DNA of 64,000 bases from an uncultured Actinomycetes bacterium (lineage in GTDB: Bacteria; Actinomycetota; Thermoleophilia; Gaiellales; Gaiellaceae), in contig CAVUMD010000002.1 in assembly GCA_963742525.1 (NCBI GenBank), positions 168,025-232,024 of the forward strand, given 5' to 3'. Position numbers and translations under genes: made by a program. Positions 12,202 to 50,452 of the stretch are shown here, piece after piece. Position 1 is the first letter of the stretch; each line of letters starts with the position of its first letter. The notes below the pieces were generated by a model. The model was not told the DNA's origin and did no database searches. It saw only the letters and a program-made list of their open reading frames with translations.

Positions 12202-13547
12202 GCGACCACCTCGAGCGGCCGGTGGATCTCGTGCGGGCCGACGTGCGCCTCGTGGACGTCCGTCGGCGCGACGATGCCGTCGAGCGACGAGGCGCCGTGG
12301 AACGGGCAGCCGCCCTCCTCGATGTGCTGGAGGAACTCCTCGCGGAACTTCGCGACGTAGCTGGCCACGGCGATCGCGTCGGAGTCCCCGAGCGGGCAGA
12401 GGCAGGTGCCGTTGATCCGGTCGCCGACGTCGAGCAGCAGGTCGAGGTCGGCGTGCGTGCCGCGACCCGACTCGATCCTCTGGAGGATGTGGGTGAGCCA
12501 GCGGGTCCCGACGCGGCACGGCGTGCACTTGCCACACGACTCGTGCTCGTAGAACTGCGAGACGCGGACGCCGAGCTGCACCATGCAACACCGGTCGTCG
12601 AGGACGATGACCGCCGCCGACCCGATCGCGCTCCCGGCCTGCGACAGCGAGTCGAAGTCGAGCGTGACCTTCTCGGCCTCGGCCGCGGTCAGGATCGGCG
12701 TCGACGATCCACCCGGGATCACGGCCTTGAGCGCTCGGCCGTCGGCGATCCCGCCTCCGACCTCGTGGATCAGGTCGTGGAGGGGGTAGCCGTGGGGCAG
12801 TTCGTAGTTGCCCGGTCGCGCGACGTTGCCGGAGAGGGAGAAGACCCGCGTGCCGGTCGAGCTCTCGACACCGAGCTTCGCGTACTCCGCGCCGCCCATC
12901 TCGATGATCGGCGTCACGGTCGTGATCGACTCGACGTTGTTGACGGCGGTCGGCGAGGCGTAGAGGCCCGCGATCGCGGGGAACGGCGGCTTCGTCCGCG
13001 GCTGGCCACGGTAGCCCTCGAGGGACTCGAGCAGCGCGGTCTCCTCCCCGCAGATGTAGGCGCCGGCGCCCCGGTGGAGGACGATCGTCACGCCGCCGAG
13101 GAGCTTCGCCTCGCGCAGCTGGTCGAGCGCCGAGACGAGGATCTCCCACTCGTGCTCGTACTCGCCGCGGATGTAGACGAACACGTGCTGGGACTCGATT
13201 CCGCGCGCGGCGATCAGGCAGCCCTCGAGGAAGCGGAACGGGACGCGGAGCATGATCTCGCGGTCCTTGAACGTGCCGGGCTCCGACTCGTCCGCGTTGA
13301 CGACGAGGTAATGGGGCCTCGGGTTCTGGTCGGGCTTCGGGACGAAGCTCCACTTGCGGCCCGTCGGGAAGAATGCGCCGCCGCGGCCGCGCAGGCTCGA
13401 CGCGTCGAGCTCGGCGATGATCTGCTCCGGCGTCATCTCCTGCGCGCGGCGGAGGGCAGTCAGGCCGCCGACCGCCTCGTACGCCGCGAGGTCGGTGATG
13501 GCGCCGCCGTCGGTGCCGGCGAAGACGACCTCGGGCGCCGCGCTCAC
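12198..13547 (-). CDS. nuoF: NADH-quinone oxidoreductase subunit F (NADH/FMN-binding)
   Basis: ORF 12198..13760 trimmed to GTG 13547 (VSAAPEVVF...). Contains GRGGAFFPTGRKW, the FMN/NADH motif GAGAYICGEETALLESLEG and the 4Fe-4S cysteines ESCGKCTPCR. Confidence 0.9.
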   Translation of the reverse strand: MSAAPEVVFAGTDGGAITDLAAYEAVGGLTALRRAQEMTPEQIIAELDASSLRGRGGAFFPTGRKWSFVPKPDQNPRPHYLVVNADESEPGTFKDREIMLRVPFRFLEGCLIAARGIESQHVFVYIRGEYEHEWEILVSALDQLREAKLLGGVTIVLHRGAGAYICGEETALLESLEGYRGQPRTKPPFPAIAGLYASPTAVNNVESITTVTPIIEMGGAEYAKLGVESSTGTRVFSLSGNVARPGNYELPHGYPLHDLIHEVGGGIADGRALKAVIPGGSSTPILTAAEAEKVTLDFDSLSQAGSAIGSAAVIVLDDRCCMVQLGVRVSQFYEHESCGKCTPCRVGTRWLTHILQRIESGRGTHADLDLLLDVGDRINGTCLCPLGDSDAIAVASYVAKFREEFLQHIEEGGCPFHGASSLDGIVAPTDVHEAHVGPHEIHRPLEVVA

Positions 13548-14011
13548 TCGCCGAGCTCCTTCACGATGCGAGGCACGTCGGCAGTGCGCACGTGCAGGTG
13601 ATGTCGGTTGTCCACGGCGACGACGGTCGCCCAGCCGCAGCCGCCGAGGCACTCCACGGCGCGGAGCGTGACGTTTCCGTCCTTGCTCGTCTCGCCGACT
13701 CCGATCCCGAGCTCGCGCTCGAGCGCCTCCAGCACCTGCTGCGCGCCGGAGACGGCGCACGAGACGTTGGTGCAGACCTCGACCGAGTGCCGGCCGACGG
13801 GATCGGTGTGGAACATGTCGTAGAACGAGGCGATCGAGAGGCAGTAGGCGGGCGTGAGACCGAGCGCGTCCGCGACCTCCCGCAGCGCCACCTCGGGCAA
13901 CCAGCCGTCGTGGCGCTCCTGCGCGAGCTGCAGCGCCGGCAGCACCGCAGACCGGGGGTCCGGATACCGCGCGCGCATCTCCTGCACGTCGTCGTAGAAC
14001 GTCTGGCTCAC
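13544..14011 (-). CDS. nuoE: NADH-quinone oxidoreductase subunit E (2Fe-2S)
   Basis: ORF 13544..14182 trimmed to GTG 14011 (VSQTFYDDVQEMRARYPDPRSAVLPALQLAQ...). Cysteines at CTNVSC...CLGGC. GTGA overlap with the nuoD stop. Confidence 0.88.
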   Translation of the reverse strand: MSQTFYDDVQEMRARYPDPRSAVLPALQLAQERHDGWLPEVALREVADALGLTPAYCLSIASFYDMFHTDPVGRHSVEVCTNVSCAVSGAQQVLEALERELGIGVGETSKDGNVTLRAVECLGGCGWATVVAVDNRHHLHVRTADVPRIVKELGE

Positions 14012-15276
14012 CGGTCGACGTCTCCCATCACGGGGTCGAGCGACGCGGCGACGGCGATCAGGTCGGCGATCGCGGTGCCGCGGACGCAGGTGGCCGTGGC
14101 CTGAAGGGCGGCGAAGCTCGGCGCCCGGAACTTCACCCGCCACGGCTTCGGGCCGCCGTCCGAGACGAGGTAGCAGCCGCACTCACCGCGCGCCGACTCG
14201 ACGGCGACGTACACCTGTCCCTCGGGGACGCGGTAGCCCTCGGTGACGATCTTGAAGTGGTGGATGAGCGATTCCATCGAGGTGTGGAGCTCCTCGCGCG
14301 GCGGCAGCACGACCTTGCGGTCGTCTGCGATCCACGGCTGCCCGCGCAGCTCCTCGAGCCGCGTCACGCACTGGGAGACGATGCGCGCCGACGCGCGCAT
14401 CTCGTCCATGTGCACCTTGTAGCGGTCGTACACGTCCCCGTTCGGATACACGGGGACGTCGAAGTCGACCTCGTCGTAGGCGAGGTACGGCTCCGCCTTG
14501 CGGAGGTCCCAGTCCACGCCGGACCCGCGCAGCATCGGGCCCGACTGGCCGAGCGCGAGCGCGTCCGCGGCGGAGAGGAGGCCGATTCCCTTGGTGCGCT
14601 CCAGCCAGATCTTGTTGCGGTCGAGCAGCGCCTCGTAGTCGTTCACTGCCCGCGGCATGTGGCGCGCGAAGTCCCGCGCCTGCTCGTAGAAGCCTTCGGG
14701 GATGTCCTCGGCGAGCCCGCCGACCTGGAAGTAGCGGGTGTGCATGCGGACGCCGCCGACCATCTCGAACAGGTCGAGCACCATGTCCCGCTCGCGGAAC
14801 GCGTACCAGAACATCGAGATCGCGCCGATCTCGAGCGCGGACGTGCCGAGCCAGACGAGGTGCGAGTGGATCCGGTTGAGCTCGGAGAGGCACATCCGCA
14901 TCCAGGTCGCCTTCTCGGGCGTCTCCAGGCCGAGCAGCTTCTCGATCGCGAGCACGAAGACCAGCTCGTTCGCCTGGAAGGAGAGGTAGTCGATCCGCTC
15001 GGGATACGTGATGCCCTTCCAGTACGTCTTGTGCTCCATCGTCTTCTCGAAGCCGGTGTGGAGGTAGCCGATCACCGCCTCGATCCCGGCGACGTGCTCG
15101 CCGTCGAGCTGCACGATCAGGCGGAGGACGCCGTGCGTCGAAGGGTGGTTCGGCCCGAAGTTGACGGTGAGGATGTCCTCGAGGTCGTGCTCGGCGGGAT
15201 CGACGTCGAGGATCGTCGGGCACCGCTCGGGGATCCGCGTCCCCTCGTAGATGCGCGTCGTCGGGACGACCGCCAT
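14008..15276 (-). CDS. nuoD: NADH-quinone oxidoreductase subunit D
   Basis: ORF 14008..15729 trimmed to ATG 15276 ([12 protein letters not shown]...). Contains NFGPNHPSTHGVLRL and IGYLHTGFEKT, typical of NuoD/49-kDa subunits. Confidence 0.92.
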   Translation of the reverse strand: MAVVPTTRIYEGTRIPERCPTILDVDPAEHDLEDILTVNFGPNHPSTHGVLRLIVQLDGEHVAGIEAVIGYLHTGFEKTMEHKTYWKGITYPERIDYLSFQANELVFVLAIEKLLGLETPEKATWMRMCLSELNRIHSHLVWLGTSALEIGAISMFWYAFRERDMVLDLFEMVGGVRMHTRYFQVGGLAEDIPEGFYEQARDFARHMPRAVNDYEALLDRNKIWLERTKGIGLLSAADALALGQSGPMLRGSGVDWDLRKAEPYLAYDEVDFDVPVYPNGDVYDRYKVHMDEMRASARIVSQCVTRLEELRGQPWIADDRKVVLPPREELHTSMESLIHHFKIVTEGYRVPEGQVYVAVESARGECGCYLVSDGGPKPWRVKFRAPSFAALQATATCVRGTAIADLIAVAASLDPVMGDVDR

Positions 15277-38402: not shown

Positions 38403-39797
38403 TCAGCCGGTCGCCGGTGCGGGGGGCGGCGCTGCGGGAGCGGGCGCGGCTCGCGGCGGTGAGACGCCGTGGTGGCCGTGGTGCTCCGTCCCATAGCCGC
38501 CGGGGACCGGGATGTAGAACTCGGGGTAGCCCCACATGCCGTGCTCGGAGACGTCGAGCCCGGCAGCTTCGACTTCGGGCTCCGTCCGGATCCCGACCGT
38601 CACCTTCATCACCCAGAGGATGAGGAACGACGCCGTGAAGGTGAACGCGCCCACCGCGACGAGGCCGAGCGCCTGGATGCCGAGCTGGTGAAGCCCGCCG
38701 CCGTAGAAGAGGCCGCCCTGGCCCCAATCGAGCGATTCCGCGAGCTTCGGCACGGTCAGGAACCCGAGCGAGAGCGTCCCCCACACCCCGGCCATGCCGT
38801 GCGCCGCAAGTGCGCCGACCGGGTCGTCGATCCCGATCTTCTCGACGAGGAGAACGCCGACCACGACGATCGCACCGGCGACGAGCCCGATGATGATCGC
38901 CGCCCACGGGGCGACGAACGCGCACGCGGCGGTGATCGCGACGAGGGCGCCGATCGCGCCGTTCAGCATCATCGAGAGGTCTGGCTTCCGGATCACGATC
39001 CAGGCGGTGGTCATCGCGCCGATGACGCCGGCCGCCGCCGCGAGGTTCGTGTTCAGCGCGACATAGGCGAAGAAGCCGACGCCGCCGTAGTCGACGCTCA
39101 GGGTCGAGCCGGGGTTGAACCCGAACCAGCCGAACCAGAGGATGAAGACGCCGAGCGTCGTGTACGCCATGTTGTGGCCGGGGATCGCCTGCGGCTTGCC
39201 GCCGACGAACTTCCCGATCCGCGGGCCGAGCAGCAGCGCGCCGGCGAGCCCAGCGAGAGCGCCCTGGTAGTGGACGACCGTCGAGCCGGCGAAGTCCTGC
39301 ATGCCCTTTGCGAACAGCCATCCGTCCCCGCTCCAGATCCAGTGGGAGACGACCGAGTAGATCAGCGTGTAGGCAAGACCGAACACGATGTACACCCAGA
39401 GGCGTGCCCGTTCCGCCATCGCGCCCCAGACGATTGCGAGCGACACTGCCGCGAACGCCGTCTGGAAGAGGAGCGCCGCGCCCGCCGGGATCGCGCCGAA
39501 CCACGAGAACGGCTCCTTGCCCACGGCAAGCAGCTCGTCCACCGTCGGCAGGAACCCGGAGCCGCCGACGATGCCGTTGCCGCCGTCGCCGAAGGCGAGG
39601 CCGAACCCGACGAGGTAGTAGACGATCGCCGCGATCCCGAGCACGAGCGCGTTCTTCGCGGCAATGTGCCCGACGTTCTTCATCCGCGTGAGACCCGCCT
39701 CGAGGAAGGCGAAGCCCGCCTGCATGAACAAGACGAGGACCGCCGCGATCACGACCCAGAGAGTGCTCGCGGCCAGGCCGAGCTCTTCCGTCGTCAT
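38403..39797 (-). CDS. amtB: ammonium transporter (Amt family)
   Basis: ORF 38403..40181 trimmed to ATG 39797 (MTTEELGLAASTLWVVIAAVLVLFMQAGFAFLEAGLTR...), an ATGA overlap with the PII gene stop. About 464 aa with a His/Pro/Ala-rich C-terminal tail. Confidence 0.92.
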   Translation of the reverse strand: MTTEELGLAASTLWVVIAAVLVLFMQAGFAFLEAGLTRMKNVGHIAAKNALVLGIAAIVYYLVGFGLAFGDGGNGIVGGSGFLPTVDELLAVGKEPFSWFGAIPAGAALLFQTAFAAVSLAIVWGAMAERARLWVYIVFGLAYTLIYSVVSHWIWSGDGWLFAKGMQDFAGSTVVHYQGALAGLAGALLLGPRIGKFVGGKPQAIPGHNMAYTTLGVFILWFGWFGFNPGSTLSVDYGGVGFFAYVALNTNLAAAAGVIGAMTTAWIVIRKPDLSMMLNGAIGALVAITAACAFVAPWAAIIIGLVAGAIVVVGVLLVEKIGIDDPVGALAAHGMAGVWGTLSLGFLTVPKLAESLDWGQGGLFYGGGLHQLGIQALGLVAVGAFTFTASFLILWVMKVTVGIRTEPEVEAAGLDVSEHGMWGYPEFYIPVPGGYGTEHHGHHGVSPPRAAPAPAAPPPAPATG

Positions 39798-40144
39798 ACG
39801 ACCTCCACCTCCTCCAGCTTCTGACCTGTCCTGTTGTGGGTCACGTTGGCGACGGGCGACATCCAGGCGATCCCGTCGCCGTTCGGATGCCCCGTGCGCG
39901 CGGCGTCGGCGATCGCCTCGACGACGCTCTCCGCGATCGCGTCGGGGACGACGAACGTGAGGTGCGCCTTGGGCAGGAACCGCGACTCGAACACGCGGCC
40001 GCGGTACTCGTGCGTGATCCCCTTCTCGCGGCCGTGCCCGACCGCCTCGACCACGGTCACGCCGACGTGGCCCGTCTGCTCCTCGACCGCCTCCATGACC
40101 GTCTCGACGCGGTCGCGGACCACCACAGCCTCCACCTTCATCAC
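39794..40144 (-). CDS. divergent PII (GlnB/GlnK-family) signal protein
   Basis: 116 aa that aligns with GlnB over its full length (VGHGREKGITHEYRGRVFESRFLPK...TGHPNGDGIAW). The T-loop is one residue longer. Tyr51 is replaced by Phe and Lys90 by Ile. Confidence 0.85.
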   Translation of the reverse strand: MMKVEAVVVRDRVETVMEAVEEQTGHVGVTVVEAVGHGREKGITHEYRGRVFESRFLPKAHLTFVVPDAIAESVVEAIADAARTGHPNGDGIAWMSPVANVTHNRTGQKLEEVEVV

Positions 40145-40168
40145 TCCGAATCACCTCCTCGGTCCACG

Positions 40169-40215
40169 AAAAAAGCCCCACCTCTCGCCGCGCGAGAGAT
40201 GAGGCGCCATTGCCT
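40169..40215 (-). promoter_or_regulatory. 5' leader element of the PII-amt operon: hexaloop hairpin overlapping a terminator-like hairpin plus U6
   Basis: The minus-strand RNA reads AGGC-AAUGGC-GCCU (40215-40202). GCCUCAUCUCUCGC-gcg-GCGAGAGGUGGGGC (40205-40175, 14 bp including 2 G-U) is followed by UUUUUU (40174-40169). It ends about 8 nt upstream of the GAGGAGG RBS. Confidence 0.55.
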
Positions 40216-40437
40216 GCCGCGGGGTCGTCGTCGTCCCCGCTGAGCCCACCCTAGAGAATCAGGCGGACCGCGCGCAAGTGCGAAGGTTCGGTTTTCCGCA
40301 CTGGCCGACCGCCGGAGCAGGGTGCTAGTCTCGCCCCGATGCTGCTCGGTATCTAGGACATCCGTTGCCGAGGCCCGCCTGGCGCGGAGCCTCTTTCTGC
40401 ACGTCCTGGATACCGCACTCGAAGGGAGAGCATCATC

Positions 40438-41277
40438 GTGAAGGAGTTGTCGCCCGTCCCGTCCGATGCACTGGCCGTGGCAACGCACGACCTGCGCAAG
40501 GAGTTCGTCCGCAAGGACAGAAAGCGCGGCAAGCGTCGTGTCGCGGCACTCGAGGACGTCACGCTCGAGGTCGCGCGCGGCGAGTGCGTCGCGATCCTCG
40601 GCCAGAACGGCTCGGGGAAGTCCACGCTCGTCCGGCTGCTCTCGACGCTGCTCCTGCCGGACGGCGGCACCGCGCGGGTCTTCGGCTACGACGTCGTTCG
40701 CGAGGACAAGGCCGTCCGCCGCCTCGTCAACAGGGTCTCGGTCGAGGCGAGCTTCTTCAAGAAGATGTCGCCCTCCGAGAACCTCCACTACGCGGCGCGG
40801 TTCTACGGCATGACGCTGTCGGAGACATCGGGGCAGATCCCGGAGATCCTCGGGCGAGTCGGGTTCCCGCCCGATCGGCGCACCGAGCCGATGGAGAACC
40901 TCTCCCGCGGGATGCAGCAGAAGGTTGCCCTCGCGAGGGCGCTTCTCACCTCGCCTGTCCTGCTCCTGCTCGACGAGCCGACGACCGGCCTCGACCCACG
41001 CTCGAAGCTCGAGGTGCAGAACTTCATCCGCGAGATGCGGGCGGCGCACGACTCGACGATCCTCCTCTGCACCCACGACCTCGGCGAGGCCGAAGCGCTC
41101 GCAGAGCGGGTGGGGATCCTCGACCGCGGCCGGCTGCTCGCGCTCGAGCCGGCCGAGCAGCTGAAGGCGCGATTCGAGGCGGAGACGCTCGAGGAGGCGT
41201 TCTTCGCCGCCACCGGGCGTGGGTTCGAGGAGGAGGAGGACGAGATGGACGCCGAGGAGAGGAGGGTCCTCGCATGA
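40438..41277 (+). CDS. ABC transporter ATP-binding protein (ABC-2 exporter type)
   Basis: 279 aa with a GTG start. Walker A GQNGSGKST, signature LSRGMQQK and Walker B LLLLDEPT. Confidence 0.9.
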   Translation: MKELSPVPSDALAVATHDLRKEFVRKDRKRGKRRVAALEDVTLEVARGECVAILGQNGSGKSTLVRLLSTLLLPDGGTARVFGYDVVREDKAVRRLVNRVSVEASFFKKMSPSENLHYAARFYGMTLSETSGQIPEILGRVGFPPDRRTEPMENLSRGMQQKVALARALLTSPVLLLLDEPTTGLDPRSKLEVQNFIREMRAAHDSTILLCTHDLGEAEALAERVGILDRGRLLALEPAEQLKARFEAETLEEAFFAATGRGFEEEEDEMDAEERRVLA

Positions 41278-42107
41278 GAGCCGTCGCCCTCGAGCTGAAG
41301 CACGAGCTGATCGGCCTCGCCGGCGTCGTCGAGCGGAACGTCTACCTCACGCGGCGCTACATCTACTGGGACCTCGCGTTCTTCGTCTGGACCGTTGCCA
41401 ACACGCTCACGATCGTCTTCATCGCGAAGGGGATCGAGGCGACCGGCGGCTCGATCGACGTCGACCGCGCGACGACGACGCTCCTGATCGGGGCCGTCGT
41501 CTGGGCGTACCTCGGGATCATCTTCGAGTTCCTCACCGAGACGGTCGCATGGGAGCGATGGGAGGGGACGATCGAGTACACGTTCATGGCGCCGCTCTCC
41601 CGGGCGATGCACCTCGGCGGCTCCGGCGTCTTCGCGGTGCTCTACGGGCTCGTCCGCGCGATCCTGCTGTTCATCGTCGTGGCGCTGTTCTTCGGCCTGG
41701 CGTTCGAGGACGCGAACTTCGCGGCGGCGCTCGTGATCCTCATCGTTGCGTCTGTCTCGTTCTTCGGCATCGGGATGATGACCGCGGTCCTGCCGCTCAT
41801 CTCCCCGGAGAAGGGCGCCCAGCTCGGGTTCGTCGCCCAGGGCATGCTGCTCGTCGTTTCGGGCGTCTACTACCCGGTCGAGGTCCTGCCGGAGTGGATG
41901 CAGTGGCTGGCGAAGATCTCGCCCGCGACGTACGCGCTCGACGGGATCCGGGCCGCAATCCTCGACGGCGCGCCGCTCGGGTCGCTCTGGCACGACATCT
42001 GGCCGCTCCTGATCATCGGCGCGGTCTGCATTCCGCTCGGCCTGGCGATCTTCAACCGCGGCGAGGTGTACGCCAAGCGGCATGGCAAGCTGAAGCGGTC
42101 CGGATGA
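41274..42107 (+). CDS. ABC-2 type transporter permease
   Basis: In ORF 40365..42107 from ATG 41274 (ATGA overlap). Six predicted TM segments. Confidence 0.82.
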   Translation: MRAVALELKHELIGLAGVVERNVYLTRRYIYWDLAFFVWTVANTLTIVFIAKGIEATGGSIDVDRATTTLLIGAVVWAYLGIIFEFLTETVAWERWEGTIEYTFMAPLSRAMHLGGSGVFAVLYGLVRAILLFIVVALFFGLAFEDANFAAALVILIVASVSFFGIGMMTAVLPLISPEKGAQLGFVAQGMLLVVSGVYYPVEVLPEWMQWLAKISPATYALDGIRAAILDGAPLGSLWHDIWPLLIIGAVCIPLGLAIFNRGEVYAKRHGKLKRSG

Positions 42108-43078
42108 GCGTCGACGCGGACCTCGAGATCACCGAGCTCGCCCTCGACGACCGCGCGGGTCACGAGGCGTACGCGGCCGTCTGGAGCGCCGTGGTGCCGC
42201 GGTACCCGATCACCGCGGACGAGCTCGAACGGCGCCGCGTGCGCAAGCCCGACGACGTTCGCGTGATCGGCAGGATCGACTGGGCGGTCGCGGGCTGCGC
42301 CTCCGCGGTCCGCTCCGACCTGCCGGGCCGGACGTACATGGGCAACGTCGTCCTGCCGGAATACCGCCGCCGCGGGCTCGGTCGCGCGCTTCTCGAGCGC
42401 GTCGTCGTGGCTGCGAGGGCGCACGGGAGCGACGCCCTCGCGGTCGGGGTCGAGGAGGGAGACGAGGCCGGCGAGCGGTTCGCGGCGCGGTTCGGGCTTT
42501 GCGAGGTCTTGCGCGAGCTCGAGATCTCGCGTCCGGTCGGGCAAGGCGAGCCGGATCCCACACCACCCGAGGGAATCGTGCTCGTCGAGCTCGCCCGACA
42601 ACCGGATCTCTGCCGGGGTGCGTACTCGGTGGCGTGCGAGGCGCTCCGGCAGATGCCGCTCCACGCCCCGCTCGAGCTGCCCTCCTACGAGCGGTGGATG
42701 GACGAGGACGTGGCCGGACCGGACGTTCTCGAAGGCGGCACGCTGGTCGCTCTCGACGGCGAGCGTGTCGTCGGGTTCGTCAGCCTGCTCCGCCGCGCCG
42801 CCGACCCGCACCTCGCCGAGCATGGTCTCACCTCGGTCGCCGCGAGCCACCGCAACCGGGGCATCGCAACCGCGCTCAAGCAGGCGCAGATCTCGTGGGC
42901 ATCGCGGAACGGCTTCCGCGAGCTGATGACCTCGACGCAGGACGCGAACGCGCCGATGCGGGCCGTGAACGACAAGCTCGGGTACGAGCCGCGGCCCGCC
43001 TGGATCCGCCTCGAGGCACCGCTCGACGAGGTCGAGGCGGCGCTGGCGGCCGACGCCGGGCTGCGGCGCCGAGGCTAG
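42104..43078 (+). CDS. tandem-GNAT N-acetyltransferase (MshD-like architecture)
   Basis: In ORF 41219..43078 from ATG 42104 (ATGA overlap). Two acetyl-CoA motifs: VLPEYRRRGLGRALL and ASHRNRGIATALK. Confidence 0.75.
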   Translation: MSVDADLEITELALDDRAGHEAYAAVWSAVVPRYPITADELERRRVRKPDDVRVIGRIDWAVAGCASAVRSDLPGRTYMGNVVLPEYRRRGLGRALLERVVVAARAHGSDALAVGVEEGDEAGERFAARFGLCEVLRELEISRPVGQGEPDPTPPEGIVLVELARQPDLCRGAYSVACEALRQMPLHAPLELPSYERWMDEDVAGPDVLEGGTLVALDGERVVGFVSLLRRAADPHLAEHGLTSVAASHRNRGIATALKQAQISWASRNGFRELMTSTQDANAPMRAVNDKLGYEPRPAWIRLEAPLDEVEAALAADAGLRRRG

Positions 43079-43365
43079 CCGCGGCGGACGGACGCCCGGG
43101 CCCTGATGGGGATCGGTTCGGGCGGGCGTTGCGGGGAGAGCGGCAGCAGCCCTCGCCGGATGGCGAGCACCACGGCGTGCGTCCCGTTCCGCGCGCCGAG
43201 CTTCGCGATGATGCGCTTGCGGTACCCCTTGACGGTCTCGGAGGAGAGGTAGAGGCGCGCGCCGGTCTGGGCGGCGGTCTCACCCTCCGCGGCGGCGGCG
43301 AGGATCTCGGTCTCGCGGTCGGTGAGCGGCTCCCCTTGCAGCACCTCGGCGAGCAGGCTGGTCAT
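43075..43365 (-). CDS. LuxR-family HTH-only protein (96 aa)
   Basis: ORF 43075..43644 trimmed to ATG 43365 (MTSLLAEVLQGEPLTDRETEILAAAAEGETAAQTGARLYLSSETVKGYRKRIIAKLG). ATGA overlap with the upstream sigma gene stop. Confidence 0.75.
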   Translation of the reverse strand: MTSLLAEVLQGEPLTDRETEILAAAAEGETAAQTGARLYLSSETVKGYRKRIIAKLGARNGTHAVVLAIRRGLLPLSPQRPPEPIPIRARASVRRG

Positions 43366-43892
43366 GCCGCGCGTCTCCTGACCCGGGTCGAGCCGTTGTG
43401 CACGAGCGTGTACACCCGGTCGGCGCTGACACCGAGGTCCTTCGCGACGTCGGCCGCGGTGTCGCCGTCGACCATCGTCCGGATGAGCGCGATGCGCTCT
43501 CGCTCCGGGATCGTCCCGAGCACGCGCAGTCGGTCGAGGTTCTCGACCGTGTCGTGCGGCGTGGGGCCGGGATCCGGGGGCTCGTACGCCTGGTCGCTCC
43601 TGACATTGTCCGTCAGGGCCGCGAACCCGACCACGTCGACCCAACGTCCGTTGCCGAGCGTGTTGCGGCGCGCACGGCTGCGGACGGTGTCCGTGATGGC
43701 GCCGCGGACGTACGGCGTCGCGAAGGCGGGGAACGGGACGCCGTACGACGGGTCATACCGCTTGGCCGCCTTCGCGAGCGCGAGGTTGCCGTCGGCGACG
43801 AGGTCTTCCTGTTCGAGCGGGGTGTGTGCCCAGCGCCTCGCTTCACGGCGCGGCAGGTGGAGTGCTTGCTCGACGAGCGTCTCTTCGGTCAT
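43362..43892 (-). CDS. sigma-70 family RNA polymerase sigma factor (small, ECF/group 3-4 like)
   Basis: 176 aa. Region 2-like DLVADGNLALAKAAKRYDPSYGVPFPAFATPYVRGAI and region 4 HTH TAADVAKDLGVSADRVYTL. Confidence 0.75.
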   Translation of the reverse strand: MTEETLVEQALHLPRREARRWAHTPLEQEDLVADGNLALAKAAKRYDPSYGVPFPAFATPYVRGAITDTVRSRARRNTLGNGRWVDVVGFAALTDNVRSDQAYEPPDPGPTPHDTVENLDRLRVLGTIPERERIALIRTMVDGDTAADVAKDLGVSADRVYTLVHNGSTRVRRRAA

Positions 43893-44170
43893 GCGCGAGT
43901 CGTGCCTCCTGAGTGGGGGACAGGGGCGACCGCAGCGGCGTCGTCACGCGCGGTTCGACGGTTCCGTTGGGGGATTGGGTCGCTTTGCATGGGGGGGCAT
44001 GCTTGGCGTCTGGCCCGAAGGCCGGTAACGGAAGGTCAAGACCCTACCAGGCGCATCGGCCGGGCGGACCGTGAACGGGAGTCAACGGTCCGGGCGTGAC
44101 GCGAGCGGCCGGCTCGTCCGGTGACGGCTGCCGACCGGCGGGTCGGAGTGGTAGTCTCACGCATGCTTTT

Positions 44171-44220
44171 CGAGGCAACGGGGCCTCGGGCGCGGAGTAT
44201 CCGTGCCCGAGGCTTTTGTC
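44171..44220 (+). promoter_or_regulatory. 5' leader element of glnA: hexaloop hairpin overlapping a terminator-like hairpin plus U-tract
   Basis: CGAGGC-AACGGG-GCCUCG (44171-44188). GCCUCGGGCGCGGA-gua-UCCGUGCCCGAGGC (44183-44213, 14 bp including 1 G-U) is followed by UUUUGUCGUUUUC. The AGGAGG RBS is at 44230-44235. Confidence 0.6.
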
Positions 44221-44241
44221 GTTTTCAAGGAGGAGACACCC

Positions 44242-45660
44242 ATGGCGAGACCTAGGTCGACCGGCGCGGCGAGCCGCTCCACGATGGTGAAGTCGAAGGA
44301 TCGCGCGACGTCGAGCGTCGCGTCGCGTCGGGCGGTTCTCAAGCGGATGCGCGACGAGGACGTGGAGCACGTCCTCTTCTGGTTCACCGATCTCGAGGGC
44401 CACCTGAAGTCGTTCGCCATCACCCCGTCGGAGATCCCGGACGCGCTGGACGACGGCATGGGATTCGACGGTTCGTCGATCACCGGCTTCAACCGGATCG
44501 AGGAGTCGGACATGGTCGCGATCCCCGACCCGGCGACGTTCCAGCTGCTGCCGCGGCCTGTCGACGAGCACGGCCATGAGGTCGGCTCGAAGGTCGCCCG
44601 CATGATCTGCGACGTCGTCCGCCCCGACGGCACGCCGTACAACGGCGACCCGCGCAACGTCCTCCGCGCGGCGCTCGACCGCATGAGGTCGCTGGGCTTC
44701 GACACGTTCAACGTCGGCCCGGAGCTCGAGTACTTCCTCTTCGAGGACGACAAGGATACGAAGACGCTCGACGAGGGCGGCTACTTCGCGATGACCGCGC
44801 AGGACGCCGCCACCGAGGTGCGCAACGACACGATCCATGCGCTGGAGTCGGTCGGCATCCCGATCGAGTACCACCACCACGAGGTCGCCCCGTCGCAGCA
44901 CGAGATCGACATGCGCTACGCCGACGCGCTCGCGATGGCCGACCACTGCATGACGTACCGGCTGATCGTGAAGGAGGTCGCGGCATGGCACGGCTACTAC
45001 GCGACCTTCATGCCGAAGCCGCTCTTCGGCGAGAACGGGTCGGGCATGCACACGCACATGTCGCTGTTCAAGAACGGGCGCAACCAGTTCTTCGACGCGA
45101 AGGACCCCCATCACCTCTCGAAGACGGCAAAGGCGTTCATCGCCGGGCTGCTCGTGCACGCGCGCGAGATGTCGGCCGTGCTCGCGCAGTGGGTCAACTC
45201 GTACAAGCGGCTCGTCCCCGGCTTCGAGGCGCCGGTCTACGTCGCGTGGTCGCAGCGCAACCGCTCGGCGCTGATCCGGATCCCGCTCTACAAGCCGGGG
45301 GAGGAGCAGGCGACCCGCGCGGAGATCCGCTGCCCCGACCCGGCCTGCAACCCCTACCTCGCGTTTGCGGCGCTGCTCCATGCCGGTCTCGAGGGGATCG
45401 AGCGCGGCTACGAGCTGCCGGACGAGATGACCACGAACCTCTACCGGCTCTCGGACGAGGAGCGTGAGGAGCAGGGCGTCGAGGCGCTGCCCGGCTCGCT
45501 CGGGGAGGCCGTCGAGGCGCTCGCTGGCTCGGAGCTCATGTCCCGTGCCCTCGGCGAGCACATTTTCCCGCGCTATGTCGAGCTCAAGCGGCGCGAGTGG
45601 GACGAGTACCGGATCCAGGTCAGCGAGTGGGAGAAGCGGCGCTACCTCTCCTCGCTCTAG
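44242..45660 (+). CDS. glnA: glutamine synthetase, type I
   Basis: ORF 44203..45660. Start chosen at ATG 44242, 6 nt after AGGAGG. Motifs FDGSSI, GPELEYFLF, EYHHHEVAPSQHEIDMRY, GSGMHTHMSL and NRSALIRIP. Confidence 0.93.
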   Translation: MARPRSTGAASRSTMVKSKDRATSSVASRRAVLKRMRDEDVEHVLFWFTDLEGHLKSFAITPSEIPDALDDGMGFDGSSITGFNRIEESDMVAIPDPATFQLLPRPVDEHGHEVGSKVARMICDVVRPDGTPYNGDPRNVLRAALDRMRSLGFDTFNVGPELEYFLFEDDKDTKTLDEGGYFAMTAQDAATEVRNDTIHALESVGIPIEYHHHEVAPSQHEIDMRYADALAMADHCMTYRLIVKEVAAWHGYYATFMPKPLFGENGSGMHTHMSLFKNGRNQFFDAKDPHHLSKTAKAFIAGLLVHAREMSAVLAQWVNSYKRLVPGFEAPVYVAWSQRNRSALIRIPLYKPGEEQATRAEIRCPDPACNPYLAFAALLHAGLEGIERGYELPDEMTTNLYRLSDEEREEQGVEALPGSLGEAVEALAGSELMSRALGEHIFPRYVELKRREWDEYRIQVSEWEKRRYLSSL

Positions 45661-45784
45661 CACTGGACATCGCTCGCCCGATGGCGCATGATCTCCGATG
45701 CGGAGGGAGCCGCTAGGCGAGCGGCGCCTTCCGTGTCTGACGGCCGATCGCGGGTCCCCGGTGGGGGCCCGTGGTCGTTCCGGC

Positions 45785-45885
45785 GATGGGGGAAACCATG
45801 ATTCCCCCACGGCCCCCTTCTTCTCGGGTCGCGCACGGGTGCGCCGCGCGCTTGGCCTCCCGCCGGGCTGAGCCCGGCTCCGGCC
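45785..45885 (+). repeat. ~100-nt structured intergenic repeat, copy C (most diverged), in the glnA 3' region
   Basis: GATGGGGGAA-accatga-TTCCCCCAC GGCCCCCTTCTTC ... GGCC TCCC GCCGGGC tga GCCCGGC TCC GGCC. Followed by hairpin CGCCGGCCG-acgcaca-CGGCCGGCG. Confidence 0.75.
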
Positions 45886-45920
45886 GCCGGCCGACGCACA
45901 CCGGCCGGCGTTCTCGCGTG

Positions 45921-46385
45921 TCAGGGTTTCCAGACCATGAGTGCGACGATGGCGACCGTCGCGACGAGCATCGAGCCGTCGAGAGTCAGTGCGACCGGGT
46001 CGCGGAGGCGTCGTGCGAGCTCGGGTGACGGAGTCTCGCGCTCGGCGGCCTCGCGTTCGGCCAGCTCGCGCGTCTTGCGGTCGAGCCTGCCGGCCACTGC
46101 GCCCGCGACGCCGAGCCACACGATCAACACGTAGGCCGCCTGCAGCCACCCGGAGTCGTACGGGACACGCAGCTCGTCGGCCAGCCAGACGCCCGCCCCC
46201 AGGGTCAGCAGCAGCCCCGTGCCGACGAGGGGCACGAGCGGCCGGACGGCACGCAGCAGGACGGCGCTCTCCGACGGTCGCTCCTTCCCGATCGCGAGGA
46301 GCCGCAACGCGGTCACGGCGATGCTGCCGCCGACGAACACGAGCACGCCCGAGAGGTGCAGGAAGAGGGCCCAGTCGCGCGCCAT
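45921..46385 (-). CDS. DUF2269/CopD-like 4-TM membrane protein
   Basis: 154 aa (MARDWALFLHLSGVLVFVGGSIAV...). Shares the LH-LS---V-VGG motif with the divergent neighbour at 46636. Confidence 0.65.
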   Translation of the reverse strand: MARDWALFLHLSGVLVFVGGSIAVTALRLLAIGKERPSESAVLLRAVRPLVPLVGTGLLLTLGAGVWLADELRVPYDSGWLQAAYVLIVWLGVAGAVAGRLDRKTRELAEREAAERETPSPELARRLRDPVALTLDGSMLVATVAIVALMVWKP

Positions 46386-46469
46386 CCGCCCGCGAAACTA
46401 GCGGCCGCGAAGCAGCCGATGCCTCGGTCGAAACCCGTAGCCTGAGGCCCTTGATGACCGCGCTCCAAA

Positions 46470-46569
46470 CGCGGGGGAACCACATGGTTCCCCCGCGAGC
46501 CCCCTCCTTCTGCGTCCGGCACGGGCGACCCGCGCTTGGCCTCCCGCCGGGCCGAGCCCGGCTTCGGCC
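46470..46569 (+). repeat. ~100-nt structured intergenic repeat, copy D, in the divergent region upstream of the CopD-like/pdtaS genes
   Basis: CGCGGGGGAACC-acat-GGTTCCCCCGCG AGCCCCCTCCTTC ... GGCC TCCC GCCGGGC cga GCCCGGC TTC GGCC. Confidence 0.8.
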
Positions 46570-47118: not shown

Positions 47119-48522
47119 GTGGACGACGCTGCACGTCATCTCGCGCTCCTCACCCGCACGACCGACGTCGTCAACTCGTCGCTCGACCTGCAGGAGGTGC
47201 TCGAGGCGATCGCGCACGAGGTCGCTGCCGCGCTCGAGACGGACGCGTGCTTCGTCTACCTCTACGACGAGCGCGCCGACGAGCTCGTGCTGCGCGCGAC
47301 CCATGGCACGCGGATCGAGGACGCGACGAGCGCGCCGCGGATGCGTCGGGGCGTGGGGATCACCGGGGTCGCAGCCGCCGAGCGCCGGCCGATCATGCTC
47401 GCCTCGGGCGCGCACCTCGACCCCCGCTTCAAGGCGTTCCCGAACCTGCGCGAGGACGAGTACGAGTCGATCCTCGCAGTGCCGATCCTCGCCCGCGACG
47501 TGCTCGAGGGGGCGCTGAACGTCCGCACACGCGATCCGCGATCGTTCACCGAGGCGGAGGTCGCGCTCCTCACGTCGATCGCCTCGCAGGTCGGACGGTC
47601 GATCGAGCACGCCAAGCTCTACGCGCAGGCGCGGCGGCGCGTGGACGAGCTCGAGGCACTCGCGCGGATCTCGGAGGCGGTCTCGGAGTCGCTCTACCTC
47701 GAGGAGTCGCTCGAGGCGATCGTCCGGACAACCGTCGAGTCGCTCCACGCGACGGGCGCCGCGGTCGTGCTCGAGGACGGGCGGATCGCGTGGCCGGAGG
47801 GCCGGGCGGGCGCCCACGCGGTGCGGCTCCCGCTCCGCTGGCGGGGGCGTGGGATCGGCGAGCTCGTCGTCGACCGTGATACGCCGTTTTCGGACGACGA
47901 CCGCCAGCTGCTCGACGCGATCGCGAACCAGGCCGCGGTCGCCCTCGAGCACGGTCGGATGGCGCTCCGCGGCGTGCTCGCCCAGGAGATCCACCATCGC
48001 GTCAAGAACAACCTTCAGACGGTCGCGTCTCTCCTGCGGCTCCAGGCGCGCGCCGACGGCGTCGACCCGCAGAAGGCGCTCGGGGACTCCGTCAACCGAA
48101 TCCTCGCGATCGCGGCCGTGCACGAGGAGCTGACAGAGCACCGCGAGGACGTCGTCGACCTCGCAGAGCTGCTCGCCCGACTTCGCGCAATGCTCGTCCA
48201 GGGGCTCGTCGTGGGCAAGCAGGTGACCGCGGACCTCGAGCCGGTCGAGCTCGCGGGACAGCGGGCGACCGCGCTTGCGGTCGTCTTCTCCGAGCTCCTG
48301 TCGAACGCCCTCGAGCACGGCGGGGACAGGGTCTCCATCGAGCTCGCGCGGGACGACGCCGACGTCCTGCTCGTCGTCGCAGACGACGGCTCCGGAATCG
48401 GCGCCGGTACGGACGGGACCGGGATGTCGATCGTGAGGGCACTCGTCCGCGACGAGCTGGGAGGATCGCTCGTGCTGGTCGACCGGGGCGGGCTCCGGGC
48501 AGAGGTGCGCTTCTCTGCGTGA
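47119..48522 (+). CDS. pdtaS: cytoplasmic GAF-domain sensor histidine kinase, HisKA_2 type (PdtaS-like)
   Basis: 467 aa, no TM segments, GTG start. N-terminal GAF domain (...LRATHG...GITGVAA...ILAVPI...), H-box EIHHRVKNNLQTVASLL and an HATPase domain with DDGSGI...GTGMSIV. Confidence 0.8.
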   Translation: MDDAARHLALLTRTTDVVNSSLDLQEVLEAIAHEVAAALETDACFVYLYDERADELVLRATHGTRIEDATSAPRMRRGVGITGVAAAERRPIMLASGAHLDPRFKAFPNLREDEYESILAVPILARDVLEGALNVRTRDPRSFTEAEVALLTSIASQVGRSIEHAKLYAQARRRVDELEALARISEAVSESLYLEESLEAIVRTTVESLHATGAAVVLEDGRIAWPEGRAGAHAVRLPLRWRGRGIGELVVDRDTPFSDDDRQLLDAIANQAAVALEHGRMALRGVLAQEIHHRVKNNLQTVASLLRLQARADGVDPQKALGDSVNRILAIAAVHEELTEHREDVVDLAELLARLRAMLVQGLVVGKQVTADLEPVELAGQRATALAVVFSELLSNALEHGGDRVSIELARDDADVLLVVADDGSGIGAGTDGTGMSIVRALVRDELGGSLVLVDRGGLRAEVRFSA

Positions 48523-48598
48523 CGACCTAGCACCGTTCCGTCATCGCGGCTTCGCGTTCCTCTGGCTTGCGGGACTCCTCTCGTTCGCGGGAGACTGG

Positions 48599-49759
48599 GT
48601 GTTGCGCATCGCGTTGCCGATCCAGGTCTACGCGCTCACGGGCTCGACGCTCGCGACCGGCGGCGTCGTCGCCGCGAACGTCGGCGCAAGCCTTCTCGTC
48701 GGGGCCGTCGCCGGTGTCTACGTCGACCGCTGGGACAGGCGCCGGACGCTCGTGGCCGGCAACCTCGCGCTGGCCGTCGTGGTCGCCCCGCTCGCGCTCG
48801 TCACGACTGCCGACCGGGTGTGGATCGTGTACGTCGTCGCGTTCTGCCAGGCGGTCGCGGTGCAGTTCGTGAGCCCGGCCGAGGCGGCCCTGCTGCCACG
48901 ACTCGTCCCGCAGAACCTGCTCCCCGCCGCGAACGGGCTGAACGCGCTCAACAACAACCTCGCGCGGCTCGTGGGTCCGGTGCTCGGCGGTTTCGCAGCC
49001 GCCCTCGGGATCGGCGCGGTCGTCGGGCTCGACCTCGTCTCGTTCCTGCTCGCCGCCGCGCTCATCGCGGCGATCGGGGGCGCGCATCGCGCCGACCGGG
49101 TCGAGGAGCGCCACGTGATCGCGGAGCTGCTCGACGGGCTCCGGCTCGTCCGGGGGACGGTTGTGGTCGCGATCCTGGTCGGGCTCCTCTTCGTGACGTC
49201 GATCGGAGAGGGCGTGATGGGCGCGCTCTTCGCCCCGTTCGTGGTCGACGCTCTCGAGGGCGGCGCGAAGGAGCTCGGCTGGACGATGACCGCCCAGGCC
49301 GTCGGCGGGATCGCCGGCGGCCTGTTCGCCGGGCGCTGGATCGCGCGGTTCGGAGCGCTCCGCGTCGTCCCGGTGACGCTCGTGCTGTTCGGCCTGATCG
49401 ACCTCGTGATCTTCAACTATCCGCGCTGGTCGACCGCCATCGTCCCCGTCCTCGTCCTGTTCGTCGTCGTCGGCGTCCCCGGAGCGGTCGGCTTCGCCGC
49501 CCAGCTCACCGTCGTGCAGAGCGCGGTCGAGAACGCCTACCTCGGTCGGGTCTTCGCTGTCGCCGGCGTGCTGGCGTCGGCGGGGATGCTGCTCGGCGCG
49601 GCGGTCGGCGGTGCGCTGGGCGAACGGGTCGGGATCGTCAATCTGCTGACCGTCCAGGGGCTCGGGTATGTCGTCGCTGGGTCGCTCGCGGGTGTGCTCC
49701 TCCGACGCGAGCCGGATCCGCTGGTCGTCGCCGAAGGCCGCGCCGACGCGATACCCTGA
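48599..49759 (+). CDS. MFS transporter (MFS_3/EntS-like); true start probably upstream of the annotated GTG
   Basis: 386-aa ORF with about 11-12 TM segments. The in-frame upstream sequence from 48524 reads DLAPFRHRGFAFLWLAGLLSFAGDWV, which looks like the conserved N-terminus, but it contains no ATG, GTG or TTG. Confidence 0.75.
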   Translation: MLRIALPIQVYALTGSTLATGGVVAANVGASLLVGAVAGVYVDRWDRRRTLVAGNLALAVVVAPLALVTTADRVWIVYVVAFCQAVAVQFVSPAEAALLPRLVPQNLLPAANGLNALNNNLARLVGPVLGGFAAALGIGAVVGLDLVSFLLAAALIAAIGGAHRADRVEERHVIAELLDGLRLVRGTVVVAILVGLLFVTSIGEGVMGALFAPFVVDALEGGAKELGWTMTAQAVGGIAGGLFAGRWIARFGALRVVPVTLVLFGLIDLVIFNYPRWSTAIVPVLVLFVVVGVPGAVGFAAQLTVVQSAVENAYLGRVFAVAGVLASAGMLLGAAVGGALGERVGIVNLLTVQGLGYVVAGSLAGVLLRREPDPLVVAEGRADAIP

Positions 49760-49852
49760 CGCGGCACGGGCGACGTCGTCCGACACGACCGCCGACGGTG
49801 GCGGGGCCGCCCCTCGGGACGCGGCGCGTCAACGACCGGACGGAGGAGATAC

Positions 49853-50452
49853 GTGTCCAGCATCCCCATGCGCATCCTGATCGCCGAGGACGAGACGATC
49901 ATCCGCCTCGACCTGCGGGACCTCCTGGAGAAGAGCGGCTTCGAGGTCGTCGCCGAGGCGCGCGACGGCGAGGAGGCAGTGGCGCTCGCGCGGAGCGAGG
50001 CGCCCGACCTCGCGCTGCTCGACGTGAAGATGCCCAAGCTCGACGGAATCGACGCGGCGCGCAGGATCCTCGACGAGCATCCGATCCCGATCGTGATGGT
50101 GACGGCCTACGGCGAGCAGGAGCTCGTCGCCCGGGCGGTCGAAGCCGGCGTCTTCGGCTATCTCGTGAAGCCGTTCCGCGAGACCGATCTCCTGCCGGCG
50201 ATCGAGACGGCCCGCGCGCGCCACGAGGAGCTCGCCGTGGTTCGCGCCGAGGCCGACTCCCTCGCCGCGGCGCTGGCGGCGCGGAAGGCGATCGAGCGGG
50301 CGAAGGGCCTGCTCATGGAACGCGAGGGCCTGACCGAGCGCGACGCCTTCGCGCGGCTCCGCAAGGCGAGCCAGATCTCGGGCCGGAAGCTCGAGGTCGT
50401 GGCCGAGGCCCTGATCGCGACGCTCGACGCAGACCCGCGGCGCGAGCCCTGA
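49853..50452 (+). CDS. pdtaR: response regulator with ANTAR RNA-binding output domain (PdtaR-like)
   Basis: 199 aa. REC domain (ILIAEDE...LLDVKMPKLDG...KP) and ANTAR domain (RKAIERAKGLLMEREGLTERDAFARLRKASQISGRKLEVVAEALI). GTG start 5 nt after GGAGGAG. Confidence 0.88.
   Translation: MSSIPMRILIAEDETIIRLDLRDLLEKSGFEVVAEARDGEEAVALARSEAPDLALLDVKMPKLDGIDAARRILDEHPIPIVMVTAYGEQELVARAVEAGVFGYLVKPFRETDLLPAIETARARHEELAVVRAEADSLAAALAARKAIERAKGLLMEREGLTERDAFARLRKASQISGRKLEVVAEALIATLDADPRREP

Follow-up and report, generated by a model that had tools for sequence, protein, structure and literature searches.

A conserved single-hexaloop leader upstream of glnA in Gaiellales, a probable ANTAR-type transcription attenuator

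The window analyzed here, a stretch of 64,000 nucleotides that its closest relatives assign to the order Gaiellales (Actinomycetota), carries a type I glutamine synthetase gene, glnA, at 44242–45660 on the plus strand. Its 472-residue product matches Pfam Gln-synt_N and Gln-synt_C as well as TIGR00653 (526.6 bits against a cutoff of 429). The gene is presumed to be regulated by its leader, which is probably a protein-dependent attenuator of transcription of the ANTAR type with termination as the default. All elements of the leader lie on the plus strand. An extended −10 promoter element, TGGTAGTCT, is found at 44149–44157 (core TAGTCT, 44152–44157) and is recognized by its conservation in orthologous leaders. 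The 5-bp core of a hairpin designated P2, the presumed antiterminator, starts 14 nt after this element. P2, identified by its sequence, fold energy and conserved loop, reads CGAGGC-AACGGG-GCCUCG and spans 44171–44188, with a 5′ arm CGAGGC (44171–44176), a hexaloop AACGGG (44177–44182) and a 3′ arm GCCUCG (44183–44188). It overlaps an intrinsic terminator hairpin of 14 bp (44183–44213), in which the arms GCCTCGGGCGCGGA (44183–44196) and TCCGTGCCCGAGGC (44200–44213) enclose the loop GUA (GTA in the DNA); the evidence for this hairpin comes from its sequence, a terminator scan and covariation in its upper stem. A U-tract (DNA TTTTGTCGTTTTC, RNA UUUUGUCGUUUUC) at 44214–44226, where premature 3′ ends would be expected, and a strong ribosome-binding site (RBS), AAGGAGGAG, at 44227–44235 complete the leader. 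The RBS lies within neither hairpin.

P2 and the terminator exclude each other, because nucleotides 44183–44188 serve both as the 3′ arm of the former and as the first part of the 5′ arm of the latter. The hexamer CGAGGC is duplicated, the 5′ arm of P2 recurring exactly at the 3′ end of the terminator (44208–44213). In most relatives, the 3′ copy reads GGGGC, which gives the terminator a basal G-U pair and leaves P2 with a Watson-Crick pair.

The original prediction had proposed both hairpins from the letters of this stretch, and both are present where it placed them. The terminator has the features of an intrinsic one: a G+C-rich stem of 14 bp with a single G-U pair and an energy of −30.7 kcal/mol, followed by the U-tract. 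A terminator scan of 42500–46500 returned this hairpin as one of two terminator-like sites (shuffle mean 0.9), and folding of the leader gave z = −3.1 relative to shuffles. The genes upstream of glnA, a sigma-70/ECF-type factor (43362–43892) and a GerE/LuxR-type open reading frame (ORF; within 43075–43644), are both on the minus strand. The hairpin therefore cannot end a co-directional upstream gene, as the prediction had reasoned.

Conservation of the leader was examined in relatives. A search with the glutamine synthetase gave 80 loci with 71–91% protein identity (L-numbers below denote these related loci), nearly all from metagenome assemblies of Gaiella, Gaiellaceae or Thermoleophilia; the sample thus comprises uncultured assemblies of a single order, Gaiellales. 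Most loci share the same order of elements: a TANNNT box, GAGGC-RAYGNN-GCCUC, the rest of the terminator, a U-rich tail and an RBS. A covariance model whose modeled structure is the terminator was built from 48 leaders. Within the window it identified the glnA leader (58.8 bits, E = 6e-12) and a second convincing site on the minus strand (40220–40166, 50.6 bits), with no third, and across 81 sources (the window and the 80 loci) it identified 106 leaders. Sixty-three of these are orthologous glnA leaders, and all retain the antiterminator/terminator layout that had been proposed for the window.

Leaders of relatives have a T-rich tail after the hairpin, and the sequence of the upper terminator stem varies from genome to genome. 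This stem covaries: 95% of cells are paired and 70 are changed on both sides, a result matched by none of 500 shuffles. The hexaloop retains its size in 105 of the 106 leaders, with the consensus R-A-Y-G-N-N (A2 in 98, Y3 in all 106 and G4 in 105). Position 1 is A in 57 leaders and G in 48. In the window, the loop AACGGG combines the A1 and G4 that are canonical for ANTAR-bound hexaloops, as originally noted, although A1 is no more than a purine preference in the Gaiellales clade as sampled here.

The 106 leaders were assigned to the genes behind them. Besides the 63 that precede the window-type glutamine synthetase (GSI), 20 precede a second type I glutamine synthetase, 13 a GlnII-type glutamine synthetase, six a PII protein and three an ArsN1/phosphinothricin-type (PAT-like) acetyltransferase; the last, in L007, is divergent from glnA and unassigned. 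Judged by these genes, the leaders mark a nitrogen-assimilation regulon, and a gene set of this kind argues that the element is a real regulatory signal. The second site in the window belongs to the same set. It is the leader (40166–40240, minus strand), recognized by the covariance model and by its fold, of an operon of a PII protein gene (39794–40144, minus strand; NCBIfam P-II family match) and an ammonium transporter gene (38403–39791, minus strand; TIGR00836, 392 bits against a cutoff of 343). This leader has a P2 of sequence CAGGC-AAUGGC-GCCUC (40216–40201) and a terminator followed by U6 (40205–40175), both on the minus strand, with a −10 box TAGGGT 31 nt upstream of P2. An irregular hairpin lies upstream of its P2 (40240–40219, minus strand); there, GCGGGG...CCCCGC closes a 10-nt loop with GACGAC inside, and no clean hexaloop is formed.

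The 43 sibling leaders, those of genes other than the window-type glnA, frequently contain a second hexaloop hairpin, P1, upstream of P2. Such a hairpin lies no more than 8 nt before P2 in 27 of the 43, whereas 1000 shuffles averaged 1.6 and never exceeded 8. When the loop was left unfiltered, position 4 was G in 27 of 28 sibling P1 hairpins. The P1 stem also covaries, with 52 cells changed on both sides and no equal in 500 shuffles, a figure to be read in the knowledge that the inner five pairs were preselected for pairing. ANTAR targets have been described as two hexaloop hairpins with A1 and G4, the second of which overlaps a terminator (PMC3369936; PMC8164766). Sibling leaders with two tandem hairpins and G4 in both loops therefore have the published layout, and they occur in the same genomes as the glnA leaders.

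A two-component system is encoded downstream of glnA on the same strand. The presumed sensor is a histidine kinase with GAF, HisKA_2 and HATPase_c domains (Pfam; 47119–48522), and the presumed RNA-binding antiterminator is a response regulator of 195 amino acids with receiver and ANTAR domains (Pfam Response_reg and ANTAR; 49865–50452). The regulator gene, whose ORF opens at 49760 and whose start was taken as the Met codon at 49865, lies about 4 kb past the glnA stop and is the only ANTAR ORF in the window. The kinase gene is found downstream of glnA on the same strand in at least 72 of the 80 loci and the regulator gene in at least 62; both counts are lower bounds, as several of the other contigs end before these genes. 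The closest solved relatives of the regulator are Mycobacterium tuberculosis Rv1626/PdtaR (1s8n, E = 2e-49) and Enterococcus faecalis EutV (6wsh, E = 6e-37). In EutV, loop base G4 is held by Arg142, Lys143, Lys147, Lys149, Glu160 and Tyr164 (PMC8934654). The window regulator has R, K, R, K, E and F at these positions, that is, four identities and the exchanges K-to-R and Y-to-F. Taken together, the comparisons leave the ANTAR link of the leader family well supported. The original comparison of the P2 loop with ANTAR-bound hairpins thus holds for A1 and G4 and gains from the downstream ANTAR system and the two-hairpin sibling leaders; with its one hairpin, the glnA leader does not fit the classical two-hairpin definition.

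The N-terminal GAF domain of the kinase is closest to solved GAF domains of PtsP/EI-Ntr (3ci6 and 3trc, E ∼1e-19). Binding of glutamine to the EI-Ntr GAF domain inhibits autophosphorylation (PMC4848567).

Folding energies were compared for the alternative structures. In the window, the full terminator (−30.7 kcal/mol) is more stable than P2 combined with the upper terminator stem (−24.9 kcal/mol) or P2 alone (−11.1 kcal/mol). When the chain was folded as it grows, P2, and later P2 with the upper stem, was the minimum-free-energy structure until ∼44210, i.e., until the last 5–6 nt of the terminator. With P2 enforced, the terminator was favored by a median of 2.2 kcal/mol in the glnA class and by 0.6 to 4.6 kcal/mol in the other classes. 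The comparison of conformers that the original prediction had called for thus finds them nearly isoenergetic, with the terminator ahead by a median of ∼2 kcal/mol, so that protein binding worth a few kcal/mol would be enough to reverse the outcome. The P2-only leaders were also tested for an energy bias toward P2 that might compensate for the loss of P1, and no clear difference between classes was seen.

These observations are best accommodated by the following scheme, in which we infer the transcription start, the binding of the regulator, and the signal with its direction. Transcription would begin a few nucleotides past the extended −10 box (44149–44157). P2 (44171–44188) would fold first, and the upper stem of the terminator would form independently of it. 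The emerging CGAGGC (44208–44213) would then compete with the 5′ arm of P2, which has the same sequence, for pairing to GCCUCG (44183–44188). Without protein, the full terminator would prevail by a few kcal/mol and transcription would stop in the U-tract (44214–44226). Under inducing conditions, the GAF histidine kinase would phosphorylate the receiver-ANTAR regulator, a dimer of which would clamp the P2 hexaloop with G4 flipped onto a conserved aromatic residue. With P2 held, the terminator would lose its 5–6 basal pairs, the leftover hairpin of 8–9 bp would stand apart from the U-tract, and RNA polymerase would read through into glnA. The same regulator may also turn on the PII–ammonium transporter operon of the window and, in relatives, other glutamine synthetase paralogs. 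Because the target genes are nitrogen genes and the GAF domain resembles that of PtsP/EI-Ntr, the likely trigger would be nitrogen limitation, possibly sensed as low glutamine through the PtsP-like GAF domain.

On this evidence, the glnA leader is probably a protein-dependent ANTAR-type attenuator that terminates by default. A wider proposal, for and against which we find the evidence evenly balanced, is that one ANTAR two-component system may serve Gaiellales as the master regulator of nitrogen assimilation, governing three glutamine synthetase paralogs and the PII–Amt genes, and that at glnA it may act co-transcriptionally through a single hexaloop without a recruitment hairpin. GlnR or AmtR fills the role of nitrogen regulator in better-studied actinobacteria.

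The leader of glnA differs from its siblings in promoter geometry. A TANNNT hexamer lies 11–16 nt upstream of P2 in all 63 glnA leaders, which backs the extended −10 element proposed for the window; in 28 of them, the TG of an extended −10 precedes the hexamer by two bases. In the other leader classes, the TANNNT box is 28–36 nt upstream of P2, most often 34 nt. With its −10 box so close to P2, the glnA leader has no space for P1, which is why it lacks one. From the promoter spacing, the glnA transcript of the window would start near 44163–44166, a few nucleotides before P2. The two-hairpin definition of an ANTAR target (P1 and P2 with a linker of 2–25 nt) does not describe this leader. A hidden P1 was also sought in all leaders, over the 45 nt before P2, and the glnA class was at the level of shuffled sequences. 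One hairpin of the window, CCGACC-GGCG-GGUCGG (44131–44146), was considered as P1 and rejected: it is upstream of the −10 box, has no G4 hexaloop and is common only to the closest relative, L003.

Several observations weigh against an ANTAR-type attenuator at glnA. A search of the 63 glnA leaders for P1 (a hexaloop on a stem of ≥5 bp, no more than 8 nt from P2) gave two, compared with a shuffle mean of 2.07, and both candidates overlap the −10 box. In E. faecalis, deletion of P1 abolished induction of eutP, and a single stem-loop was bound less well than the pair (PMC3369931). In the paper on the EutV-RNA structure, sites with a single hexaloop were expected chiefly where a transcribing polymerase imposes no time constraint (PMC8934654). 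Given the deletion result and this expectation, an antiterminator that is coupled to a terminator and consists of P2 only is unexpected. Loop position 1 is G in 42 of the 63 glnA leaders, a departure from the canonical A, which is found in 36 of the 43 others. Covariation, which the original prediction had suggested testing on an alignment of orthologs, was strong in the upper terminator stem but essentially nil in the P2 stem over the family, the AGGC/GCCU core of the latter being near-invariant. Since the P2 stem sequence was itself part of the patterns or models used to find the leaders, its invariance was not counted as evidence of pairing. Compensated variants are rare, GAGAC/GUCUC (L031) and AAGGC/GCCUU (L070), and a few leaders have weakened stems. 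Pairing of P2 accordingly rests on invariance, these two variants and energetics. The weakest step is from the kinase GAF domain to glutamine sensing, which is possibly correct; the similarity is at the level of the domain only.

Against these points stands the EutV-RNA structure itself, in which both ANTAR domains of the dimer bind one hexaloop and isolated P1 and P2 have similar affinity (PMC8934654). The minimal site was redefined in that work as a single hexaloop, P1 being the recruitment hairpin and P2 the antitermination hairpin. Because the EutV dimer sits on one hexaloop, a P2-only antiterminator is mechanistically plausible. The near-invariance of the P2 arms may likewise be understood, as the segment must pair with two alternative partners.

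Among the alternatives, the one that survives best is an unregulated, leaky terminator, with P2 a kinetic trap that fixes the fraction of read-through and nitrogen control exerted elsewhere, at the promoter or on the enzyme. Partial read-through would be expected in any case from conformers that are near-isoenergetic without protein, and the lack of P1 is consistent with this account, because loss of P1 abolished induction in the EutV assays (PMC3369931). A leaky terminator, however, leaves unexplained the near-invariant A2, Y3 and G4 of 106 leaders, the presence of the same P2 in dual-hairpin leaders of other nitrogen genes, and an ANTAR two-component system whose linkage to glnA is conserved. 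We consider it unlikely.

Somewhat less likely still is that P2 is bound by another RNA-binding protein, a small RNA or a metabolite, in the manner of a riboswitch, without involvement of the ANTAR regulator. The single hairpin and the frequent G1 do depart from the ANTAR consensus. A hairpin of 16–18 nt would, however, make a very small binding site for a ligand, dual-hexaloop leaders in which both loops have G4 contain the same P2 beside a conserved ANTAR system, and the leader has no match to an Rfam family, the glutamine riboswitch families included. An Rfam scan of 43500–44700 at E values up to 10 returned only unrelated families below threshold (PhotoRC-I and Xanthomonas and Pseudomonas small RNA models, the last two of which merely fit a terminator shape), and scans of L062 and L049 at gathering scores gave no match. 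The PhotoRC-I match (44011–44049, minus strand; 23.5 bits, gathering score 45, E = 0.0016) is a GGCC-UUCG-GGCC-type hairpin in the sigma–glnA intergenic region; it is probably due to chance, or else the hairpin could belong to the 5′ region of the sigma factor gene.

A DNA operator, with GAGGC-N6-GCCTC bound by a dimeric transcription factor just past the promoter and its overlap with the terminator incidental, would suit the near-invariant, perfect inverted repeat of the arms, their lack of covariation and, at glnA, a position ∼5–20 nt past the inferred start that is typical of repressors, but it is very improbable, as the distance of the repeat from the −10 box depends on the leader class (11–16 versus 28–36 nt) while its position relative to the terminator is always fixed, the conserved spacer R-A-Y-G is asymmetric, the pattern matches in the loci are all on the sense strand and directly 5′ of a terminator and gene (the exceptions are an unrelated hairpin in L053 and three cases in which such a near-palindromic site was also read on the reverse strand), the sequence of P1 changes but its pairing is retained, a sign that selection acts on RNA and not on DNA, and the two alternative pairing partners explain the invariance of the arms.

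Three further candidates were rejected. A leader-peptide attenuator was considered because ATG at 44164 opens a frame of 30 codons; by inspection, the frame is not conserved in aligned relatives, many of which read ...GTCTATGTGAGGC at this point, so that ATG is followed directly by TGA. A pseudoknot between AACG of the loop and CGUU of the tail in the window is, again by inspection, not conserved in relatives. A motif-like site at 13305–13320 has one mismatch, no terminator and a score of 6.3 bits, lies inside a long, codon-biased minus-strand ORF (12198–14027) and was attributed to chance.

An ANTAR-type attenuator at glnA would have clear parallels. Like EutV/eut, NasR/nasF and AmiR/amiE (Ramesh et al., 2012, PMC3369931), the leader has a G4 hexaloop hairpin whose 3′ arm is the 5′ base of the terminator, and, as in EutV-type systems, the genes of a receiver-ANTAR regulator and a histidine kinase lie close by and the targets belong to nitrogen metabolism. 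Unlike EutV-type leaders, that of glnA has no P1 and has G at loop position 1 in two-thirds of orthologs, and its host, Gaiellales within the Actinomycetota, was not found in published surveys. The survey of 2012 reported ANTAR matches upstream of PII, ammonium transporter and glutamine synthesis genes, and its Table S2 lists glutamine synthetase genes beside ANTAR regulators in Firmicutes, e.g., Alkaliphilus (PMC3369931). The novelty that the original prediction claimed for a glnA attenuator was therefore overstated, since ANTAR leaders beside glutamine synthetase had been listed for other phyla. The leader corresponds to the minimal site of Walshe et al. (2022, PMC8934654), who foresaw that sites of this kind may occur, in its single hexaloop, with the G4-contact residues kept in the window regulator; it departs from the same authors' expectation that such sites would serve in small RNA sequestration or overlap an RBS, in that the glnA hexaloop is coupled to a terminator and the decision would be co-transcriptional.

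Within the Actinomycetota, the nearest counterpart is PdtaS/PdtaR of Mycobacterium. The regulator is closest to Rv1626/PdtaR, and the kinase has the same HisKA_2-type core and N-terminal GAF sensing. The GAF domain of the window kinase resembles that of PtsP, and PdtaS sensor structures were absent among the solved-structure matches. Actinobacterial ANTAR RNAs mostly overlap the RBS or start codon, with few before terminators, and have been linked to transport, lipid and redox genes, not to nitrogen assimilation (Mehta and Ramesh, 2021, PMC8164766). The Gaiellales element differs from those surveyed in marking a terminator-coupled nitrogen regulon; in the supplementary tables of that survey, we found one weak glutamine synthetase match and no Gaiella. 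The leader shares with the glutamine riboswitches (the glnA RNA motif and the Downstream-peptide motif) a cis-acting RNA placed before nitrogen-assimilation genes, and differs from them in its much smaller size, in its architecture, which is that of a hairpin bound by protein, and in the lack of an Rfam match. These riboswitches are known from cyanobacteria and marine metagenomes.

The relatives also include exceptions at glnA. L034, L035 and L039 carry, ∼100 nt upstream of the gene, only a degenerate remnant (GAGACGAUGA...) without terminator or U-tract. Several genomes of this type have an intact dual-hairpin leader on the neighboring glnII. The remnants look like evolutionary loss of attenuation at glnA. 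In the close relatives L001, L007 and L008, glnA has no leader and a leader lies on the opposite strand, ∼150–270 nt upstream of the gene; in L001 and L008 it drives a divergent GlnII gene. One contig, L027, is labeled ‘Pseudomonadota bacterium’ yet has a Gaiellales-type glnA (75% identity), leader, kinase and regulator, and is probably mis-binned or mislabeled.

The three acetyltransferase cases are on the minus strand of L064 (3029–3625), L028 (∼2413) and L027 (∼4575). N-acetyltransferases of the ArsN1/phosphinothricin type detoxify inhibitors of glutamine synthetase, and their occurrence here points to joint regulation of the enzyme and its protection.

Two features of the surroundings deserve mention. 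An MFS transporter gene (48437–49759, plus strand) lies between kinase and regulator in the window only; tblastn with its product found no homolog in the 80 related loci, where kinase and regulator genes are much closer together and in many cases abut directly. The transporter gene appears to have entered the two-component operon by an insertion specific to this lineage. On the other side of glnA, a long plus-strand ORF with two GNAT acetyltransferase domains (41219–43078) converges on the LuxR/sigma pair. Its GC3 signal (G+C at third codon positions) is under the coding filter, so gene boundaries there are uncertain.

The mechanism class, ANTAR antitermination of nitrogen genes, is already established and is not new. 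Three features appear to be new: an ANTAR nitrogen regulon of Gaiellales that is coupled to terminators; the 63 leaders with a single hairpin (P2 only), a conserved family that coexists with dual-hairpin leaders; and a candidate glutamine-sensing kinase. To our knowledge, nitrogen control in actinobacteria has so far been ascribed to DNA-binding regulators. The 63 single-hairpin leaders and their 43 siblings, at least 27 of which have a clear upstream hairpin, form a natural set under one presumed regulator. Whether single-hexaloop ANTAR sites exist, and what role they would have, was raised with the EutV-RNA structure (PMC8934654), and the Gaiellales set speaks directly to that question. If the proposal is correct, P2 alone would suffice for ANTAR antitermination in nature, and P2-only and P1-plus-P2 leaders in one cell would provide a natural paired comparison for the successive-binding model. 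Should the one-hairpin form work co-transcriptionally, the view of P1 as an obligatory recruitment site would need revision, and searches for ANTAR targets that require two hairpins would miss a class of sites. For the Gaiellales, an abundant and almost uncultured soil lineage, the leader family offers a testable mechanism for the regulation of nitrogen assimilation.

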